Part shown: in pieces, positions 1-7,463 of the stretch
Numbering within the stretch: position 1 is the stretch's first letter
Layout of the letters: each line of letters opens with the position of its first letter
Source of the DNA: a virus
Lineage: Duplodnaviria > Heunggongvirae > Uroviricota > Caudoviricetes
DNA length: 7,463 bases
IMG/VR virus record: IMGVR_UViG_2526164628_000018
Strand: one strand, 5' to 3'
The notes under the pieces: model-generated
Told to the model about the DNA's origin: nothing
What the model saw: the letters and a program-made list of their open reading frames with translations, nothing else
The model's database searches: none
Program-made: the position numbers and the translations under genes

Positions 1-981
1 TTATAACGTCACTCCGCCTTTTAGTGGATTCAGAGCGACGGCGTTCTGCAGGTAGTCAGGCGCAAGGTGCGCATAGGTCATTGTCTGCTGAATGCTCGCA
101 TGCCCCAGAATCTGTTGCAGTGCAATTATGTTGCCCCCATTCATCATGAAATGGCTTGCGAATGTATGCCGCAGAATGTGGGTTGCCTGATTGGGAGGTA
201 TATCAGGTTTCACTCTGCGTAAAATCCCGCAAAACTTCTCATAATCTACCTTGAACAATTTGGCGCTGGCCTCCTCTTTAACTTTTTTCTCCAGTTCCTC
301 AGAAATCGGCACTGTTCGCTTTTTACCGTTTTTGGTTTTCAGGAAGGTAACCCTGCAACTTGTAATCTGTGCTGGTTTTAGTGTGGCAACTTCCGTCCAC
401 CTTCCTCCAGTGCTCAGACATAAAAGCGCGACAAGTAAGTCATCACCAGTCAAAACATTTAGCAGTTTTTCGATTTCTGCTTTTTCCAGGAACGTCATTT
501 CAGGGTTAGCCTCCGTCAGTGGCGGCAGTCCGTGAATTGGGTGTTGCCCGGAAAATTCATCCAATTGAATTAATTTTGTGAACATGCCGGATAATCGGTA
601 CATGTCGCGGTTTATCGTTGCAGCACTGATGCCATCACGTAGTCGCATGGAGCGATAATCCATCAAAGCCCTTTTGTTCATCCGACTCACTGGTATATCA
701 CCTATGCCGCTGATGGTTTTGAGCAGATGATTAAACTCTTTTGTCCCATGCTCGTGGTTTTGCCCGTGGTATTTCCACCAGATGTCGAGCAATTCTGTCA
801 AAGTTCGGCGGTCTGCTCGCTGGCCTCCCCATTCTTTCTGACTGGCATTGGCGATTGTGTATCGCTCAAATGCTAGTGCTTCAGCTTTTCTTTCAAATTT
901 CCTGCGGATGCGTTTTCCGTTGCGACCGCGAGGTCTAATGTCCACTTCATAGCGACCATCATCGAGCTTCTTAATTGCCAT
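1..981 (-). CDS. int: P2-family tyrosine recombinase / phage integrase (326 aa from the MAIKKLDDG start; an upstream in-frame ATG at 1011 would give 336 aa)
   Basis: Full-length minus-strand ORF with stop at 1-3. The N-terminus MAIKKLDDGRYEVDIRPRGRNGKRIRRKF matches my recollection of P2-type integrases. The C-terminus carries the tyrosine recombinase catalytic signature (arginine in GGRWTEV, HILRHTF box, and nucleophile tyrosine in QTMTYAHL). A GGAGGG Shine-Dalgarno sits about 8 nt upstream of the ATG at 979-981, whereas the ATG at 1011 has none. Confidence 0.9.
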   Translation of the reverse strand: MAIKKLDDGRYEVDIRPRGRNGKRIRRKFERKAEALAFERYTIANASQKEWGGQRADRRTLTELLDIWWKYHGQNHEHGTKEFNHLLKTISGIGDIPVSRMNKRALMDYRSMRLRDGISAATINRDMYRLSGMFTKLIQLDEFSGQHPIHGLPPLTEANPEMTFLEKAEIEKLLNVLTGDDLLVALLCLSTGGRWTEVATLKPAQITSCRVTFLKTKNGKKRTVPISEELEKKVKEEASAKLFKVDYEKFCGILRRVKPDIPPNQATHILRHTFASHFMMNGGNIIALQQILGHASIQQTMTYAHLAPDYLQNAVALNPLKGGVTL

Positions 982-1050
982 AAGAAAGCCCTCCGGCGCT
1001 GTATTCACCATCTTGGTGGCAAATGGTGAAAATGTAATTTTTATATAGAG

Positions 1051-1344
1051 TTAGCCAATCCTTTTCGCGGAGTGGTTGGATTCTGTTGACTCTGGCCCAC
1101 TGTGCGCGAGAGCCGGTGCGATTTGTCCCGCTTCCGGCGCTGTTTTATCTGTCATGAGCCATAGTGTGTATTTTTGGAACTGAGGTGCATTGGTGACCTG
1201 CAACACAACTTGGATGCCAGGGTCTTGATGGCCTCCTTCGTAATTCTTTAGCGTTCCTAACGCTATGCCGCTGATTTCACTGAATTTTGCTTGAGTTAGC
1301 CCTTCCGATTGTCTTATTGCTCTTAATTTCTGTGCGATATTCAT
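1051..1344 (-). CDS. C: P2-type immunity repressor C (97 aa, helix-turn-helix)
   Basis: Small ORF immediately upstream of int on the same strand, as in the P2 C-int operon. It has an N-terminal HTH-like segment (LTQAKFSEISGIALGTLKNYE) and a C-terminal QFQKYTLWLMTDKTAPEAGQIAPALAH block that I recall as conserved in P2 C-like repressors. Its start abuts the divergent promoter region. Confidence 0.8.
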   Translation of the reverse strand: MNIAQKLRAIRQSEGLTQAKFSEISGIALGTLKNYEGGHQDPGIQVVLQVTNAPQFQKYTLWLMTDKTAPEAGQIAPALAHSGPESTESNHSAKRIG

Positions 1345-1374
1345 TTGACATAGTCCTGACTTAATGACTATATT
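1345..1374 (+). promoter_or_regulatory. Candidate early promoter Pe (sigma70-like) with overlapping candidate repressor operator repeats
   Basis: Consensus -35 TTGACA at 1345-1350, an 18-bp spacer, and -10 TATATT at 1369-1374, oriented toward cox. Tandem direct repeats TGACTTAA (1357-1364) and TGACTATA (1365-1372) overlap the spacer and -10. P2-type C repressors are known to bind direct repeats flanking the Pe -10. I could not place the leftward Pc promoter confidently. Confidence 0.45.
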
Positions 1375-1480
1375 CCCCGAAAAAGGTCATTAATCCAGAA
1401 CCTTTTCGGGCGTGAGTCCAGCGCCGCTTAAACGGTTCCAAGCGGTTTTTAAGGGGCTGGATCCTATGAGGGTAACATAG

Positions 1481-1753
1481 ATGGAAGTTAATGATTATGT
1501 GATTAAGTACCCGCTTGATGCGGTACATGCGGAAAAGTTTGCAGATTTATTGGGTAAACCAAAAACCGCAGTTACAGAAATGATAAAGGCTAACAAGCTA
1601 CCGGTTATCGAGCTTCGAGATCCAAATAAGCCGAAGGCCCGCGCCGGTGAGAAATGGGTTTTCATTCCAGAGTTTAATCGCGCTGTACGTGAGGCGTTTT
1701 ATAACCGACCGGTTGAACAGCGTGATGCATGGCTTTTGTGGATGGGGTTGTGA
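1481..1753 (+). CDS. cox: Cox-like excisionase / transcriptional regulator (90 aa)
   Basis: First gene of the rightward operon, divergent from C, with the length and position of P2 Cox. GAGGG Shine-Dalgarno at 1469-1473, 7 nt before the ATG. Basic, DNA-binding-like composition. Confidence 0.75.
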   Translation: MEVNDYVIKYPLDAVHAEKFADLLGKPKTAVTEMIKANKLPVIELRDPNKPKARAGEKWVFIPEFNRAVREAFYNRPVEQRDAWLLWMGL

Positions 1754-1755
1754 TT

Positions 1756-1926
1756 ATGAATGAGCCGCGTTGTATTGCGCAGTTACTGCGTAACGAAAGC
1801 CCCAGGGCGATTGACTTCACCATCACCCACGGTAAGGGGCGTAAGGGAATCATTATCCGCACCAAAAAACAGAGTCCGTTAAAAAAGGCTCTGAACTTTC
1901 TGAAAAGCCGGAGGGTCTGGAAATGA
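1756..1926 (+). CDS. Small basic hypothetical protein (56 aa), in the position of the P2 small ORF between cox and B
   Basis: ATG at 1756 lies 2 nt after the cox stop (1751-1753). Its stop overlaps the B start as ATGA (1923-1926). The Shine-Dalgarno is weak (GGGG). The upstream in-frame ATG at 1729 has no Shine-Dalgarno and would overlap cox. Confidence 0.5.
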   Translation: MNEPRCIAQLLRNESPRAIDFTITHGKGRKGIIIRTKKQSPLKKALNFLKSRRVWK

Positions 1927-2423
1927 CAGTGATGACACTTAATCTCGTCGAAAAACAGCCAGCAGCTATGCGCCGGATAATTGGTAAGCATCTGGCCGTC
2001 CCTCGCTGGCAGGAGACATGTGATTATTATAATCAGATGATGGAACGTGAACGGCTAACGGTTTGCTTCCATGCGCAGTTAAAACAACGTCACGCAACGA
2101 TGCGTTTCGAAGAAATGAACGATGTCGAACGTGAACGGCTGGTTTGTGCAATTGATGAATTGCGTGGGGCATTCTCAAAACGCCGTCAGGTCGGTGCAAG
2201 TGAGTATGCATATATTAGTTTTTTAACAGTCAGTCAGCGGCGTACTTTATTTATGCATGCCAGATTGACAGAAAAAGAATTCAACCAGCCATACTGGCTA
2301 ATTAATGAAAAATCATGTTACTGGCGTGATGCTTTATTCCGTGCATTACGTGAATTATTCAGTCTGTTTGAGTATGCACCGACAATTCTGACATCGGTAA
2401 AACCAGAGCAATATCTGCATTAA
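1923..2423 (+). CDS. B: P2 gene B-like replication protein (166 aa; helicase-loader-type accessory factor)
   Basis: A 166-aa ORF matching the length and position of P2 B. GGAGG at 1910-1914 sits 8 nt upstream, and the start overlaps the preceding stop (ATGA). The assignment rests on synteny and recalled similarity, not on a catalytic motif. Confidence 0.8.
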   Translation: MTVMTLNLVEKQPAAMRRIIGKHLAVPRWQETCDYYNQMMERERLTVCFHAQLKQRHATMRFEEMNDVERERLVCAIDELRGAFSKRRQVGASEYAYISFLTVSQRRTLFMHARLTEKEFNQPYWLINEKSCYWRDALFRALRELFSLFEYAPTILTSVKPEQYLH

Positions 2424-2486
2424 GCAATTAACCAGAGTTTTTAACGCACTTAATTGTGCGGGGCTTCTTTTTGCCTGGAGAAAGTC

Positions 2487-2711
2487 ATGCATACAGTTTC
2501 TGAAAATCAGTGCGGTAAATACGCATTACTGCTGCAACAGGCCAGAACCGAAGCACAGGCCGACGCTGCGACGCGCTTTTCTTCTCATCTTGACGCCATG
2601 ATTCGCCACATCACAAAGGCGGAGTTATCCCGCGTGGAGATAGTTGAGCTGCTCAGTCAGGAGTCGGAAAAATTTCACAATATCGGATTGTCTCGCGGGG
2701 AGGTGCTTTGA
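2487..2711 (+). CDS. Hypothetical early-operon protein (74 aa; P2 orf80-like position)
   Basis: ATG at 2487 is preceded by GGAG at 2477-2480 (6-nt spacing). The ORF-track start at 2454 has no Shine-Dalgarno. The stop TGA at 2709-2711 overlaps the next start. Confidence 0.6.
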
Positions 2712-3013
2712 TGTCCTGTTCTCGTTCGGTTGTATTACTGAATAACGCCTTAAAAATCGCCGTTATGAAAAATGGTGATTTGTCTCTTATTCAACTTGGT
2801 ATTGATAAAGAGAAGCGCGAAATAACTGAATCTGTTATCACGATTTATCAGAGTGAATTAAACCTCCTGTCTGATGTGGTCAATTTACTTGTTAAACGCG
2901 CTGTATTCCACAAGCAAATTTCCTCAGTGGATGAACTGACAAAATTAACGACAGAACTCGCCAGTTATTGCGCTGATGAATTTAAGAAGCTGAACGACAA
3001 AAGGAGCTGGTAA
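2711..3013 (+). CDS. Hypothetical early-operon protein (100 aa; P2 orf81-like position)
   Basis: ATG at 2711 overlaps the upstream stop (TGATG). GGAGG at 2699-2703 sits 7 nt upstream. The ORF-track start at 2708 is a TTG. Confidence 0.6.
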   Translation: MSCSRSVVLLNNALKIAVMKNGDLSLIQLGIDKEKREITESVITIYQSELNLLSDVVNLLVKRAVFHKQISSVDELTKLTTELASYCADEFKKLNDKRSW

Positions 3014-3237
3014 TGCCGGACAACGTGGATTTTATTCAGGAACAACAGGCTGAATTACTGGAGCGCCAGATTAACGCGGCAAGGGTAAAACATTGCGGTG
3101 TTTCTGCGCTGGTTTGCGAAGAGTGTGACGCGCCAATACCTGCTGCCCGTCGTGCGGCTTATCCGTCAGCCACGCGTTGTGTTTCCTGTCAGTCAGTCTT
3201 TGAAGCAAAAAACAAACATTACCGGAGAACGGCATGA
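3013..3237 (+). CDS. TraR/DksA-family C4-type zinc-finger protein (74 aa; P2 orf82-like)
   Basis: Paired CxxC motifs (CEEC and CVSC) with the spacing typical of phage TraR/DksA-like zinc fingers. AAGGAG at 3001-3006 sits 6 nt upstream. The start overlaps the upstream stop (TAATG). Confidence 0.75.
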   Translation: MPDNVDFIQEQQAELLERQINAARVKHCGVSALVCEECDAPIPAARRAAYPSATRCVSCQSVFEAKNKHYRRTA

Positions 3238-3509
3238 GTATTCGTATTGAAATTGGCGAACGTTATGTCGTTACCAGTGACAGCTTTCAGTTTATTCTCC
3301 ACGAGAAAAAGAGAGCGGAAAGCGGTAAAAACGCCGGTCAGGAATGGCTGGCGGTGGTTGGTTATTACCCGAAATTAGGCCAGCTCGTTTCCGGCCTGAT
3401 GCATCACGATATTCTGACCGGAAGCGCAAAATCTTTTGCTGATTTAAACGCGCAGGTTGAGCAACTCAGCAAGCGTTGTTCAGAGGCTTTTGGCTCATAT
3501 GGCCGTTAA
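3234..3509 (+). CDS. Hypothetical early-operon protein (91 aa; P2 orf83-like position)
   Basis: ATG at 3234 overlaps the upstream stop (ATGA). GGAG at 3224-3227 sits 6 nt upstream. Its 3' end overlaps the A start by 11 nt. Confidence 0.6.
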   Translation: MSIRIEIGERYVVTSDSFQFILHEKKRAESGKNAGQEWLAVVGYYPKLGQLVSGLMHHDILTGSAKSFADLNAQVEQLSKRCSEAFGSYGR

Positions 3510-5775
3510 AGCCTCCGGGCGTTTTGTCCCTCCGTCAGCATTTACCGCAGGCACCGGTAAGGCGTTTACCGGTGCTTATGCATGGAACGCGCCACGCGAG
3601 GCTGTCGGGCGCGAAAGACCTCTTACACGTGACGAGATGCGTCAGGTGCAAGGTGTTTTATCCACGATTAACCGCCTGCCTTACTTTTTGCGCTCGCTGT
3701 TTACTTCACGCTATGACTACATCCGGCGCAATAAAAGCCCGGTGCACGGGTTTTATTTCCTCACATCCACTTTTCAGCGTCGTTTATGGCCGCGCATTGA
3801 GCGTGTGAATCAGCGCCATGAAATGAACACCGACGCGTCGTTGCTGTTTCTGGCAGAGCGTGACCACTATGCGCGCCTGCCGGGAATGAATGACAAGGAG
3901 CTGAAAAAGTTTGCCGCCCGTATCTCATCGCAGCTTTTCATGATGTATGAGGAACTCTGCGATGCATGGGTTGATGCGCATGGTGAAAAAGAATCGCTGT
4001 TTACGGATGAGGCGCAGGCTCACCTGTATGGTCATGTTGCTGGCGCTGCACGTGCTTTCAATATTTCCCCGCTCTACTGGAAAAAATACCGTAAAGGACA
4101 GATGACCACGAGGCAGGCATATTCTGCCATTGCCCGTCTGTTTAACGATGAGTGGTGGACTCATCAGCTTAAAGGCCAGCGTATGCGCTGGCATGAAGCG
4201 TTACTGATAGCTGTCGGGGAGGTCAATAAAGACCGTTCTCCTTATGCCAGTAAACACGCCATTCGTGATGTGCGTGCGCGCCGCCAGGCAAATCTGGAAT
4301 TTCTTAAATCGTGTGACCTTGAAAACAGGGAAACCGGCGAGCGCATCGACCTTATCAGTAAGGTGATGGGCAGTATTTCTAATCCTGAAATTCGCCGGAT
4401 GGAGCTGATGAACACCATTGCCGGTATTGAGCGTTACGCCGCCGCAGAGGGCGATGTGGGGATGTTTATCACGCTGACCGCACCGTCAAAGTATCACCCG
4501 ACACGTCAGGTCGGAAAAGGCGAAAGTAAAACCGTGCAGCTTAATCACGGCTGGAACGATGAGGCATTTAATCCAAAGGATGCGCAGCGTTATCTCTGCC
4601 GTATCTGGAGCCTGATGCGCACGGCATTCAAGGATAATGATTTACAGGTTTACGGTTTGCGAGTCGTCGAGCCACACCACGACGGAACGCCGCACTGGCA
4701 TATGATGCTTTTTTGTAATCCACGCCAGCGTAACCAGATTATTGAAATCATGCGTCGCTACGCGCTCAAAGAGGATGGCGACGAAAGAGGAGCTGCGCGA
4801 AACCGTTTTCAGGCAAAACACCTTAACCGGGGCGGTGCTGCGGGATATATCGCGAAATACATTTCAAAAAACATCGACGGCTATGCACTGGATGGTCAGC
4901 TCGATAACGATACCGGCAGGCCGCTGAAAGACACTGCCGCGGCTGTTACCGCATGGGCGTCAACGTGGCGCATTCCGCAATTTAAAACGGTTGGCCTGCC
5001 GACAATGGGGGCTTACCGTGAACTACGCAAATTGCCTCGCGGCGTCAGCATTGCTGATGAGTTTGACGAGCGCGTCGAGGCTGCACGCGCCGCCGCAGAC
5101 AGTGGTGATTTTGCGTTGTATATCAGCGCGCAGGGTGGGGCAAATGTCCCGCGCGATTGTCAGACTGTCAGGGTCGCCCGTAGCCCGTCGGATGACGTTA
5201 ACGAGTACGAGGAAGAAGTCGAGAGAGTGGTCGGCATTTACGCGCCGCATCTCGGCGCGCGTCATATTCATATCACCAGAACGACGGACTGGCGCATTGT
5301 GCCGAAAGTTCCGGTCGTTGAGCCTTTGACTTTAAAAAGCGGCATCGCCGCGCCTCGGAGTCCTGTCAATAACTGTGGAAAGCTCACCGGTGGTGATACT
5401 TCGTTACCGGCTCCCACACCTTCTGAGCACGCCGCAGCAGTGCTTAATCTGGTTGATGACGGTGTTATCGAATGGAATGACCCGGAGGTCGTGAGGGCGC
5501 TCAAAAGCGCATTAAAACACGGCCTGAGAAGACCAAACCGTCAGCAAAGAAACGGAAACCCGTTAAAACCACATGAAATTGCACCATCGGCCAGACTGAG
5601 CCGGTCGGAGCGATTGCAAATCACCCGTATCCGCGTTGACCTTGCTCAGAATGGAATCTTGCCCCAGCGATGGGAGCTTGAGGCGCTGGCGCGTGGGGCA
5701 ACCGTAAATTATGACGGGAAAAAATTCACGTATCCGGTTGCTGATGAGTGGTCGGTTTTTTCAATTAAACAATAA
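3499..5775 (+). CDS. A: P2 gpA-type rolling-circle replication initiation endonuclease (758 aa)
   Basis: First ATG in frame (the track start at 3457 is a TTG). Carries the rolling-circle metal-binding motif in VEPHHDGTPHWHMMLF and the paired active-site tyrosines in GYIAKYISKNIDGY (phiX174 A / P2 A superfamily). Length is close to P2 A and it sits at the end of the early operon. Confidence 0.9.
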   Translation: MAVKASGRFVPPSAFTAGTGKAFTGAYAWNAPREAVGRERPLTRDEMRQVQGVLSTINRLPYFLRSLFTSRYDYIRRNKSPVHGFYFLTSTFQRRLWPRIERVNQRHEMNTDASLLFLAERDHYARLPGMNDKELKKFAARISSQLFMMYEELCDAWVDAHGEKESLFTDEAQAHLYGHVAGAARAFNISPLYWKKYRKGQMTTRQAYSAIARLFNDEWWTHQLKGQRMRWHEALLIAVGEVNKDRSPYASKHAIRDVRARRQANLEFLKSCDLENRETGERIDLISKVMGSISNPEIRRMELMNTIAGIERYAAAEGDVGMFITLTAPSKYHPTRQVGKGESKTVQLNHGWNDEAFNPKDAQRYLCRIWSLMRTAFKDNDLQVYGLRVVEPHHDGTPHWHMMLFCNPRQRNQIIEIMRRYALKEDGDERGAARNRFQAKHLNRGGAAGYIAKYISKNIDGYALDGQLDNDTGRPLKDTAAAVTAWASTWRIPQFKTVGLPTMGAYRELRKLPRGVSIADEFDERVEAARAAADSGDFALYISAQGGANVPRDCQTVRVARSPSDDVNEYEEEVERVVGIYAPHLGARHIHITRTTDWRIVPKVPVVEPLTLKSGIAAPRSPVNNCGKLTGGDTSLPAPTPSEHAAAVLNLVDDGVIEWNDPEVVRALKSALKHGLRRPNRQQRNGNPLKPHEIAPSARLSRSERLQITRIRVDLAQNGILPQRWELEALARGATVNYDGKKFTYPVADEWSVFSIKQ
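5350..5369 (+). other. Candidate origin of replication / gpA nick site inside gene A
   Basis: In P2 and 186 the origin is known to lie inside the 3' part of gene A. The sequence GCGCCTCGGAGTCCTGTCAA matches my unverified recollection of the P2 ori cleavage region. Confidence 0.3.
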
Positions 5776-5827
5776 TGGCTACTGCCGCAGCGTTGTGGGA
5801 ATGCTATAGTGTTTGTAGAATTATCCC

Positions 5828-5858
5828 ATGAAAAACAACTAATTAATCTGTTTTTCAT
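5828..5858. repeat. Perfect 10-bp inverted repeat (ATGAAAAACA ... TGTTTTTCAT) with an 11-bp spacer containing the palindrome TAATTA
   Basis: Read directly from the sequence. Located in the AT-rich gap between A and the methyltransferase gene. The stem is almost entirely A/T, so it looks more like a protein-binding site than an intrinsic terminator. Confidence 0.5.
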
Positions 5859-5922
5859 ATTGAACTAATTTTTTATGGCCACAGTTGTTAAAAAGTGAGA
5901 ACATAATCTTGTTCAAAACCTG

Positions 5923-5951
5923 CTTCTATATACGGAGGCTTTCGCTATAAT
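5923..5951 (+). promoter_or_regulatory. Candidate promoter for the methyltransferase gene
   Basis: Perfect -10 TATAAT at 5946-5951 with AT-rich upstream DNA. The -35 at 5923-5928 (CTTCTA) is poor. The predicted start would give a short leader carrying the strong AGGAGG Shine-Dalgarno at 5966-5971. Confidence 0.3.
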
Positions 5952-5976
5952 ACGCGGTCGGTTTTAGGAGGGGATA

Positions 5977-6921
5977 ATGCCAACAGTAGTTTCACTTTTT
6001 TCTGGATGCGGTGGTTCCGATGCGGGGGTTCTGAGAGCTGGCTTTGATGTGCTTATGGCCAACGATATCTTGCCGTATGCGCGCGATGTTTATATTGCCA
6101 ATCATCCAGAAACTGATTACATTTTAGGCAATATTGCTGATGTAACTACTTTTCCTAAATCTGATTTGCTAGTAGGTTGTTATCCATGTCAGGGATTCAG
6201 CCAGGGTGGTGCGCGTAAGGCCGATCGAAAAATTAATACTCTTTATTTAGAGTTTGCTAGAGCTTTAAACAATATAAAGCCTAAAGCTTTTATAGTAGAA
6301 AACGTGTCTGGTATGGTTAGAAAAAACTTCGAGCATTTGTTATCTGACCAGATCAGGGTTTTTACTGAAGCAGGTTATGCTGTTTCAGCAAAAGTTTTGA
6401 ATGCGGCTGAATATGGAGTAGCGCAGGAAAGAAAAAGAATATTTATCGTAGGAATCCGTAATGATTTCAAAGTTAAGTACGAGTTCCCTCAGCCAACTCA
6501 TGGGCCGGCGACTGGCGTCAACTATGTTACTATTAAAGATGCTATAGGGCATTTACCTGAATGGCCAGAAGGTGAATTTTATGATATGGGGTTCCATTGG
6601 TATTATATGTCTCGCAATCGTCGCCAAGATTGGGATCAAATTTCAAAGACAATAGTTGCTAATGCAAGGCATATGCCGTTGCATCCTATCAGTCCTTCGA
6701 TGGAGAAAGTAAGAACTGATGAATGGAGGTTTGTTGAGGATCGGAGAGCTCGCAGATTCAGTTTTCGAGAGGCAGCACTATTACAAGGGTTTGAGGATCT
6801 AGTGTTTCCCGAAACAAATGCTGCAAGTCTTGGCATGAAATACACGGTGGTTGGTAATGCAGTGCCTCCGCCGCTTTTTGAAGCTGTAACGAAGGCATTG
6901 CCAATAGAATTATGGGATTGA
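5977..6921 (+). CDS. DNA (cytosine-5)-methyltransferase (314 aa), complete, with all canonical motifs
   Basis: Motif I FSGCGG (SAM binding), motif IV GCYPCQGFS (catalytic Cys in PCQ), motif VI ENVSGM, motif VIII QERKRIFIVG, a variable region of about 130 aa, motif IX RRFSFREAALLQGF and motif X GNAVPPPL. AGGAGG Shine-Dalgarno 5 nt upstream. Spot counts of 100-bp samples give roughly 31-53% G+C (mean near 40%) against about 60% in one sample of A. Confidence 0.9.
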   Translation: MPTVVSLFSGCGGSDAGVLRAGFDVLMANDILPYARDVYIANHPETDYILGNIADVTTFPKSDLLVGCYPCQGFSQGGARKADRKINTLYLEFARALNNIKPKAFIVENVSGMVRKNFEHLLSDQIRVFTEAGYAVSAKVLNAAEYGVAQERKRIFIVGIRNDFKVKYEFPQPTHGPATGVNYVTIKDAIGHLPEWPEGEFYDMGFHWYYMSRNRRQDWDQISKTIVANARHMPLHPISPSMEKVRTDEWRFVEDRRARRFSFREAALLQGFEDLVFPETNAASLGMKYTVVGNAVPPPLFEAVTKALPIELWD

Positions 6922-6928
6922 TAAGCTA

Positions 6929-7163
6929 TTAAGGCTCTGGATTTAATGTATAAAGTTCTTCTTCAAATTCGCGAAACCAATCAGAGGTAGTTATCGCTTC
7001 CCATTGGTTTGCCTTATCAAGTAGATATATGATCCTCAACCTATCTAATAATAATACACCAGCGGTTGCATGTGTGCTTACCCATTCGCCATTTGCTTCC
7101 CGATAGAAAACAGGCGTGAACATTGTTGATGGATGCTGGAAAGCAATTTGGAAATAGGTGGTC
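6929..7163 (-). pseudogene. 3' fragment (77 codons) of an unknown gene convergent with the methyltransferase, apparently truncated by the IS3 insertion
   Basis: The minus-strand frame is open from the IS terminus at 7164 down to the TAA at 6929-6931. The first in-frame stop upstream lies inside the IS (7169-7171). The only ATG (7121-7123) has no Shine-Dalgarno. The stop is 7 bp from the methyltransferase stop. G+C is low, like the methyltransferase gene. Confidence 0.45.
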
Positions 7164-7463
7164 TGATCCTACCCACGTAATATGGACACAGGCCTAAGCG
7201 AGGTTCTGGTTTTCAAATTGTTCCGGACTGAGGCCGCCACACCAACTGTGCCGCCGCCACCGATTGTAATCACATTCGATATAATTAAACACCGTTGCCC
7301 GCATTATTTCCCGGCTGATAAAGTGTTCTCCATGGATACATTCCACTTTCAGCGAATGAAAGAAGCTTTCCACGCAGGCATTATCGTAGCAGCAACCTTT
7401 TGCGCTCATACTTCCACGCAGATTATGCCGCTTCAGTTGCGCCTGATAATCTGCTGAACAGTA
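7164..7463 (-). mobile_element. IS3-family insertion sequence, right-end portion (terminus at 7164, extends beyond the window)
   Basis: The terminal sequence TGATCCTACCCACGTAATATGGACACAGGCC begins with the 5'-TG of IS3-family inverted repeats. The 3' end of the transposase gene lies about 30 bp inside the terminus. Likely IS3 itself, from memory. Confidence 0.85.
7194..7463 (-). CDS. IS3-family transposase OrfB (DDE/rve integrase core), C-terminal part only; 5' end beyond the window
   Basis: The minus-strand frame is open to the window edge, so the track ORF starting MSAKGCC is only the part after an internal Met. It reads ...[48 protein letters not shown]...[20 protein letters not shown], the conserved C-terminal region of IS3 OrfB (InsF-like). 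Confidence 0.85.

Follow-up and report, generated by a model that had tools for sequence, protein, structure and literature searches.

The 7,463-nucleotide stretch of Caudoviricetes DNA analysed here (IMG/VR record IMGVR_UViG_2526164628_000018; hereafter the window) ends inside a copy of the insertion sequence (IS) IS3, and we regard it as practically certain that this element has inserted into a nuclease-like gene. In Escherichia coli TW10590 an uninterrupted orthologue of the gene encodes 329 amino acids (WP_000142507.1). The 1258-bp IS3 entered codon 252 and duplicated the bases GTC, so that codons 253-329 (6929-7162) are cut off from codons 1-252, and the upstream part has gained five IS-encoded residues and a stop. 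Taken as a whole, the reading in which IS3 splits the nuclease-like gene of a three-gene cassette resembling a restriction-modification (R-M) system is one that we consider probable. The features that bear directly on the split are as follows.

6929 to 7162, minus strand: detached 3' part of the split gene (codons 253-329 and stop codon of the 329-codon gene), 100% identical to the 3' end of WP_000142507.1 (TW10590 locus L001, 9050-9284)
7121 to 7123, minus strand: internal Met265 codon of the split gene, which is the apparent start of a mechanical 64-amino-acid open reading frame (ORF) and, from the lack of a ribosome-binding site and the lengths of homologues, not a real start
7161 to 7163, no strand assigned: near copy of the 3-bp IS3 target-site duplication, GTC on the plus strand and GAC on the gene strand
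7164 to 7463, minus strand: right end of IS3, with the terminal inverted repeat TGATCCTACCCACG... and the 3' end of the transposase gene orfB, 100% identical to annotated IS3 copies

From position 7162 the minus-strand frame runs through 77 sense codons to a stop at 6929-6931, and each of the five remaining frames holds three to six stops across 6929-7163. The region has a G+C content of 40%. A stop-free run of 77 codons is expected by chance with a probability of 0.6% (analytic), and 93 of 20,000 shuffled sequences stayed open over that length, which bears out the claim of an earlier, sequence-only reading that the frame is improbable by chance. That reading had also placed the true start of the gene beyond the IS and expected the flanking frames to join into one ORF. 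The TW10590 orthologue bears out both: the frame in the window is the 3' end of a longer gene, and base 7163 is the final base of the split codon 252.

The sole in-frame ATG, at 7123, is preceded by CCAGCATCCATCAACA, in which there is no Shine-Dalgarno-like motif, so that the internal ATG lacks a ribosome-binding site as had been stated. Gene callers report the exact 64-residue product of this ATG on four contigs, which might be taken to mark a genuine small gene, but the chance of this is negligible. On all four contigs a longer gene is broken upstream of the call, by IS3 (contig L004), a nonsense change (L005), a frameshift (L007) and a join that is inverted or chimeric (L006). Aligned with homologues of about 330 residues, the 64 residues correspond to the C-terminus. 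Stand-alone 64-residue homologues, which would have told against the split, were looked for and none was found. Because the homologues are about 330 residues long, the 64-residue ORF is a gene remnant and not a gene.

On the other side of the break, positions 7164-7463 are identical at every base to IS3 copies that thousands of E. coli records annotate; in a complete 1258-bp element (L013, 1501-2758) they correspond to the right end. The element starts exactly at 7164, and only its right 300 bp lie inside the window. The ORF at 7194-7409 on the minus strand is the C-terminus of the transposase; since the 3' end of the transposase gene lies on this strand, IS3 is oriented in the same direction as the interrupted frame. 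Homology to the uninterrupted TW10590 allele stops at 7163, and that allele reads ...GGTGGTC before and AGTTTT after the insertion point. The bases at 7161-7163 are GTC, as the sequence-only reading gave them.

The far junction was predicted on the premise that the insertion was simple and duplicated 3 bp (GTC/GAC). The upstream product would then consist of residues 1-252 followed by DLTQQ and a stop, read from the left end of IS3, TGATCTTACCCAGCAATAG, which was checked in the complete element. Such a protein, ending in ...KLT plus DLTQQ, requires ...CTGAC to be joined to TGATCTTACCCAGCAATAG. The exact predicted protein, of 258 amino acids, is present in the protein collection as EHX42591.1 (P0121; locus tag ECDEC13A_4322) from E. 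coli DEC13A. In another assembly of DEC13A (3350-73) a partial product stops where the gene is broken (...NVLKL), and Logan contig SRR096909_343 (run SRR096909) carries the exact 64-residue ORF and the identical junction and breaks 28 bases into IS3. The matching duplication that had been expected at the far IS end is thus found at the level of the protein; the full element extends beyond the window.

Could the two junctions instead stem from separate IS3 copies, parted by an IS-mediated inversion or by an insertion of other DNA? The contigs available with the junction are short-read assemblies that break at the IS, and the junction is found in none of the complete E. coli genomes in the collection. 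A search of species-representative genomes also gave no match to the exact junction, which carries little weight as there is one genome per species. However, the flanks fit together exactly and carry the same 3-bp duplication that IS3 transposition typically leaves, a combination unexpected after recombination between separate copies, and we consider this arrangement highly improbable. Terminal sequence, target duplication and transposase orientation can all be read in the window as in any IS3 insertional inactivation, and nothing here is unusual in comparison: the insertion is ordinary IS pseudogenisation.

At E<=1e-3 the family to which the split gene belongs numbers 252 homologues; enterobacteria, Pseudomonas, Burkholderia and methylotrophs are among the sources. 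Among the best 120 of these 252, nearly all are 327-348 residues long, with two shorter or partial entries (232 and 314 residues). An alignment of 41 homologues has 55 invariant columns, ten of them within the last 77 residues. Sequence searches of the family against PDB, Pfam, NCBIfam and PADLOC returned nothing meaningful; matches to W_rich_C and GCN4 fell below threshold and were taken as noise. In PHROGs the protein is phrog_3984, labelled as of unknown function.

An AlphaFold model, built from the 41 homologues with P0001 (97% identical) as the first row, has a predicted local distance difference test score (pLDDT) of 87 and a predicted template modelling score (pTM) of 0.89. Foldseek placed MspJI first (E 8e-3, probability 0.96), BsaWI second and Cfr10I lower. 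These matches are weak, and because they are enriched for one fold class, a PD-(D/E)xK-type domain is the best reading. We infer from the model an N-terminal winged helix and a C-terminal PD-(D/E)xK restriction-endonuclease-like domain, and on that basis the protein is probably the DNA-cutting effector of the cassette. This is in keeping with the earlier suggestion that the frame is the 3' part of a restriction or toxic partner, and we lean towards a nuclease function in defence.

The insertion lies downstream of all the conserved acidic and basic residues (D208, D212, Q232, E237, K243 and E246). The segment lost comprises two predicted core strands, three helices and ten of the 55 invariant residues (P263, M266, P269, R273, W279, D292, R293, R295, W314 and F318). 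Because core strands, helices and invariant residues are removed, the IS3-truncated nuclease is, as judged from the model, most likely inactive.

The gene that faces the split gene is complete.

5977 to 6921, plus strand: intact C5 DNA cytosine methyltransferase of 314 amino acids (Pfam DNA_methylase 5.2e-65; NCBIfam dcm; M.HaeIII, 1dct)

The two genes are convergent, with 7 bp between their stop codons. The methyltransferase matches Pfam DNA_methylase (PF00145) over its full length and M.HaeIII (1dct) over residues 4-308 at 2.8e-48; it is identical to WP_001143635.1 of TW10590. The catalytic motifs expected of a type II R-M methyltransferase are present, PCQ and ENV being visible in the translation. 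From this analysis the enzyme probably marks self DNA. Its best PADLOC match is DruM (1e-113), and membership in Druantia was considered and rejected; because no other Druantia component is present, the match is read as similarity within the methylase family.

The third gene lies beyond the window. In TW10590 the minus-strand operon begins with a gene for a 373-residue protein of ParB/KorB fold, annotated 'ParB N-terminal domain', which overlaps the 329-residue gene by 11 nucleotides (L001, 10029-10039). Among the other loci examined the two genes overlap or lie no more than about 30 nucleotides apart, with one wider gap (L037). Such spacing suggests that the genes are translationally coupled and that their products are made in a fixed ratio. 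The model of the ParB-like protein (pLDDT 86) has the ParB/KorB fold, and E79-G80-N81-R82-R83, the arginine motif known as GNRR, is invariant, so that both the ParB/Srx (ParB-CTPase) fold and its GxxR nucleotide-binding motif are found. The model points to what is probably a nucleotide-dependent DNA-binding or loading partner.

We propose that in the intact cassette the methyltransferase would mark self DNA, the ParB-like protein would bind DNA or load its partner, and the nuclease would cut, giving an R-M-like defence carried by a prophage. In the strain with the IS3 allele the methyltransferase would still work and the ParB-like gene would presumably remain, but restriction would be lost. 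The sequence-only reading had called the methyltransferase a probable orphan opposite a single convergent partner gene, which holds in part. The enzyme is intact and its convergent, nuclease-like partner is split, but that partner is the second gene of a two-gene operon whose first, ParB-like gene, outside the window, is presumably intact.

The cassette lies in the variable cargo region of a prophage. Positions 1-7163 match the P2-like prophage of E. coli TW10590 with 0 mismatches. That prophage adjoins cpxP, and the window corresponds to its left arm. The TW10590 gene order is integrase, repressor and Cox; small early genes; gpA; the methyltransferase; the 329- and 373-residue genes on the minus strand; and the portal gene Q. 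The left boundary of the cargo is contained in the window.

3457 to 5775, plus strand: P2 gpA-type replication endonuclease, left boundary of the cargo (defence) hotspot, from the annotation of the identical TW10590 prophage

The interval between gpA and Q is a known P2 defence hotspot (PMC9122126, PMC9519451). The cargo region (5776-7163) has a G+C content of 41% and the phage backbone (1-5775) one of 49%, which fits a cassette acquired from elsewhere. The tetranucleotide GATC is strongly depleted in the P2-like prophage (L001, 2122-18284, a span that takes in positions 1-7163 of the window; 20 observed against about 61 expected under a first-order model) and undepleted in the A+T-richer cassette (14 observed, 12 expected).

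Linkage of the three genes can be followed well beyond this prophage. Positions 6880-7163 match 48 complete E. coli genomes, and in all 48 the matching gene, annotated 'hypothetical protein', faces a 'DNA cytosine methyltransferase' in convergent orientation; the cassette is intact in every one. The widely used laboratory strain E. coli ATCC 8739 (L003, 8098-11150), for instance, has an intact cassette, its match to 6880-7163 being 99.6% identical. A search with a profile of the nuclease found the ParB-like gene as the immediate upstream neighbour in 20/20 of the species-level loci whose upstream DNA is available, and a homologous C5 methylase adjacent in 12 of 18 informative species-level loci, in two of them upstream on the same strand. 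On viral contigs, all 79 methyltransferase loci with room downstream carry both partners at full length with no premature stops, and all 28 nuclease loci carry the methylase. The association persists where the gene order is altered (L036, L037, L112, L143), and the cassette adjoins integrases in Pseudomonas and Burkholderia islands. Linkage across hosts, elements and gene orders argues for one functional unit.

These counts speak against two further proposals of the sequence-only reading. Loss of the partner had been called a common fate of such systems, yet it is lost or broken in 0/48 complete E. coli genomes and 0/79 viral contigs; in this cassette family partner loss is rare. The insertion had also been thought to make the module tolerable to its host. 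This is contradicted by TW10590: its prophage arm is identical to the window over 7163 bases and its cassette is unbroken, so the intact cassette is tolerated. A sporadic inactivation that arose recently in the DEC13A lineage is the best description of the IS3 allele.

Several points weigh against the overall reading of an IS3-split nuclease gene in an R-M-like cassette. The evidence for the far junction is a protein record and not DNA, and it is on this record that the flanking of a single IS3 copy by both junctions would rest. A classical (D/E)xK triad is not obvious among the conserved D212, Q232, E237, K243 and E246. That the methyltransferase recognizes GGCC is a guess, perhaps correct, drawn only from its full-length similarity to M.HaeIII; GGCC is undepleted in the cassette (7 observed, 6 expected), a count as uninformative on specificity as the 48 observed against 66 expected in the prophage. 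In six of the 18 informative species-level loci, moreover, the ParB-like and nuclease genes occur as a pair without an adjacent DNA methyltransferase, and four of these six lie between housekeeping genes, an unusual place for a nuclease that attacks unmethylated self DNA. An endonuclease that never occurs without its protective methylase is thus what the viral contigs contain (28/28) and what those six species-level loci, judged from neighbourhoods only, do not. These methylase-free chromosomal pairs are the chief ground for caution about a strict R-M mechanism. Such pairs (L025, L028, L029 and L030, also L017 and L022) stand beside citrate synthase, aconitase, NadA and PrmC in Methylococcales and Burkholderiaceae, and the L017 pair adjoins a type I HsdS.

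The same pairs lend some weight to a different account, in which the ParB-like protein and the nuclease form a self-contained defence or abortive infection system, blind to methylation, and the methyltransferase does something else for the phage, for instance protecting it from host restriction, and neighbours the pair in the hotspot by chance. ParB-superfamily domains sense DNA in systems other than R-M, namely GmrSD, SspE and Menshen (PMC12065111), and MspJI, the best fold match of the 329-residue protein, is a modification-dependent enzyme. On viral contigs, however, the pair stands beside the methyltransferase without exception in both directions of the comparison (79/79 and 28/28), and linkage that survives changes of mobile element, host and gene order is unexpected for chance neighbours in a hotspot that shuffles its cargo. 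We therefore judge this account rather unlikely.

A role in the partition or maintenance of a prophage-plasmid, with the IS insertion as the neutral loss of a maintenance gene, is far less likely still. The first gene of the operon does have a ParB/KorB fold and is called 'partition protein' in some records, and Rousset et al. took ParB-type cargo, which about a quarter of P2-like phages carry, for putative partition systems (PMC9122126). A ParABS system, however, encodes ParB with ParA, and no ParA-type ATPase gene is annotated next to the cassette in the TW10590, 504239, ATCC 8739, Pseudomonas or Burkholderia loci. The partner of the ParB-like gene has a restriction-nuclease-like fold, association with a methyltransferase is obligate on mobile elements, and chromosomal copies of the pair are found between housekeeping genes.

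HaeIII and BspRI are type II R-M systems with C5 methyltransferases that recognize GGCC. The cassette resembles such systems in that its HaeIII-like C5 methyltransferase is closely linked to, and convergent with, a gene whose product has a fold like that of restriction endonucleases, and in that it travels as mobile cargo. It differs in that the non-methylase side consists of two proteins, one of them of ParB/KorB fold, in that the nuclease-like protein matches no Pfam restriction endonuclease family, its resemblance coming from fold prediction, and in that the pair has no neighbouring methylase in a third of species-level loci.

Among described defence systems, PD-lambda-5 is a compact prophage system that combines restriction-modification with abortive infection (RM+Abi) and has a methyltransferase (Vassallo et al. 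2022, PMC9519451). It shares with the cassette a prophage location, a ParB N-terminal domain and a methyltransferase function, but the likeness in sequence is limited to the ParB-N domain. PADLOC PD-Lambda-5_A models match residues ~9-190 only of the ParB-like protein (1.6e-28); the profiles have 169-592 positions (most ~430-510) and are matched over at most the first ~210. Vassallo et al. label PD-lambda-5 by a methyltransferase top hit, which suggests a longer protein with that function, whereas the C5 enzyme here is separate. No PADLOC model, and hence no B model, matches the 329-residue protein, even at E<=1 for its relatives, so that the cassette does not belong to PD-lambda-5. PDC-M38A models of PADLOC also match the ParB-like protein; nothing of relevance on PDC-M38 came up in the literature searched. 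The ParB-superfamily defence sensors of the DUF262 branch (GmrSD/BrxU, SspE, DndB and NsnA of Menshen) likewise pair a nucleotide-binding domain of ParB/Srx fold with a nuclease effector (PMC12065111); the cassette does not have the combination of a DUF262 domain and a DUF1524 HNH nuclease that defines the GmrSD Type IV systems.

The closest relative is found in phage Wphi, whose mth/orf96/orf98 genes (L014, 3606-6776; also in a P2 isolate, L015) are the same cassette in the same P2 hotspot. Identity between the two is 76% for the methyltransferase, 34% for the ParB-like protein and 26% for the nuclease-like protein. The Wphi cassette is a diverged subtype annotated only as hypothetical proteins, and the literature search found no functional study of it. 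This 'type b' form is commoner on viral contigs than the type in the window. No paper that names or tests the cassette was found in the literature searched, and as a system it is absent from Pfam, NCBIfam and PADLOC.

It is tempting to speculate, and we do so tentatively, that the cassette is an undescribed form of R-M-like immunity. In it, a winged-helix PD-(D/E)xK nuclease might be licensed by a nucleotide-gated DNA clamp of the canonical ParB/KorB branch that scans DNA or is loaded on it, and C5 methylation would mark self. The methylase-free chromosomal pairs could then be a variant with another means of self-discrimination, and the DEC13A allele a natural nuclease-null, methylase-positive control. 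If so, a protein of the canonical ParB/KorB branch would join the parts list of restriction-like immunity, and some ParB-type cargo of P2-like phages read as partition might need re-reading as defence.

The insertion itself is routine; the three-gene cassette that it uncovers matters more and deserves experiment. It is found widely: the P2 defence hotspot, other prophages, and integrative islands of gamma- and beta-proteobacteria all carry it, and on mobile elements it is always complete. TW10590 (intact) and DEC13A (IS3-split) offer an isogenic comparison, their prophage arms being identical over 7163 bases.

A few further broken alleles were seen, in low-coverage assemblies. In L005 (~705-716) a change of CCA to TAA creates a nonsense codon, and in L007 (~363-376) a change of GGCC to ACTTC shifts the frame; the site is gene nucleotides 718-721 (L001, 9318-9321). 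Both destroy the single GGCC of the nuclease gene, which would be the target of the neighbouring HaeIII-like methylase. The changes may be genuine lesions where the DNA is methylated or cut, or they may be sequencing errors, given the low coverage of these assemblies. In a 1.8x metagenome contig (L006, ~395-425), the methyltransferase at about nucleotide 140 is joined in inverted orientation to the nuclease at about codon 250, at a 7-nucleotide microhomology (AAACTGA) that lies 2 nucleotides from the IS3 insertion point. The four disruptions found (the window, L005, L006 and L007) all fall within codons 241-252.
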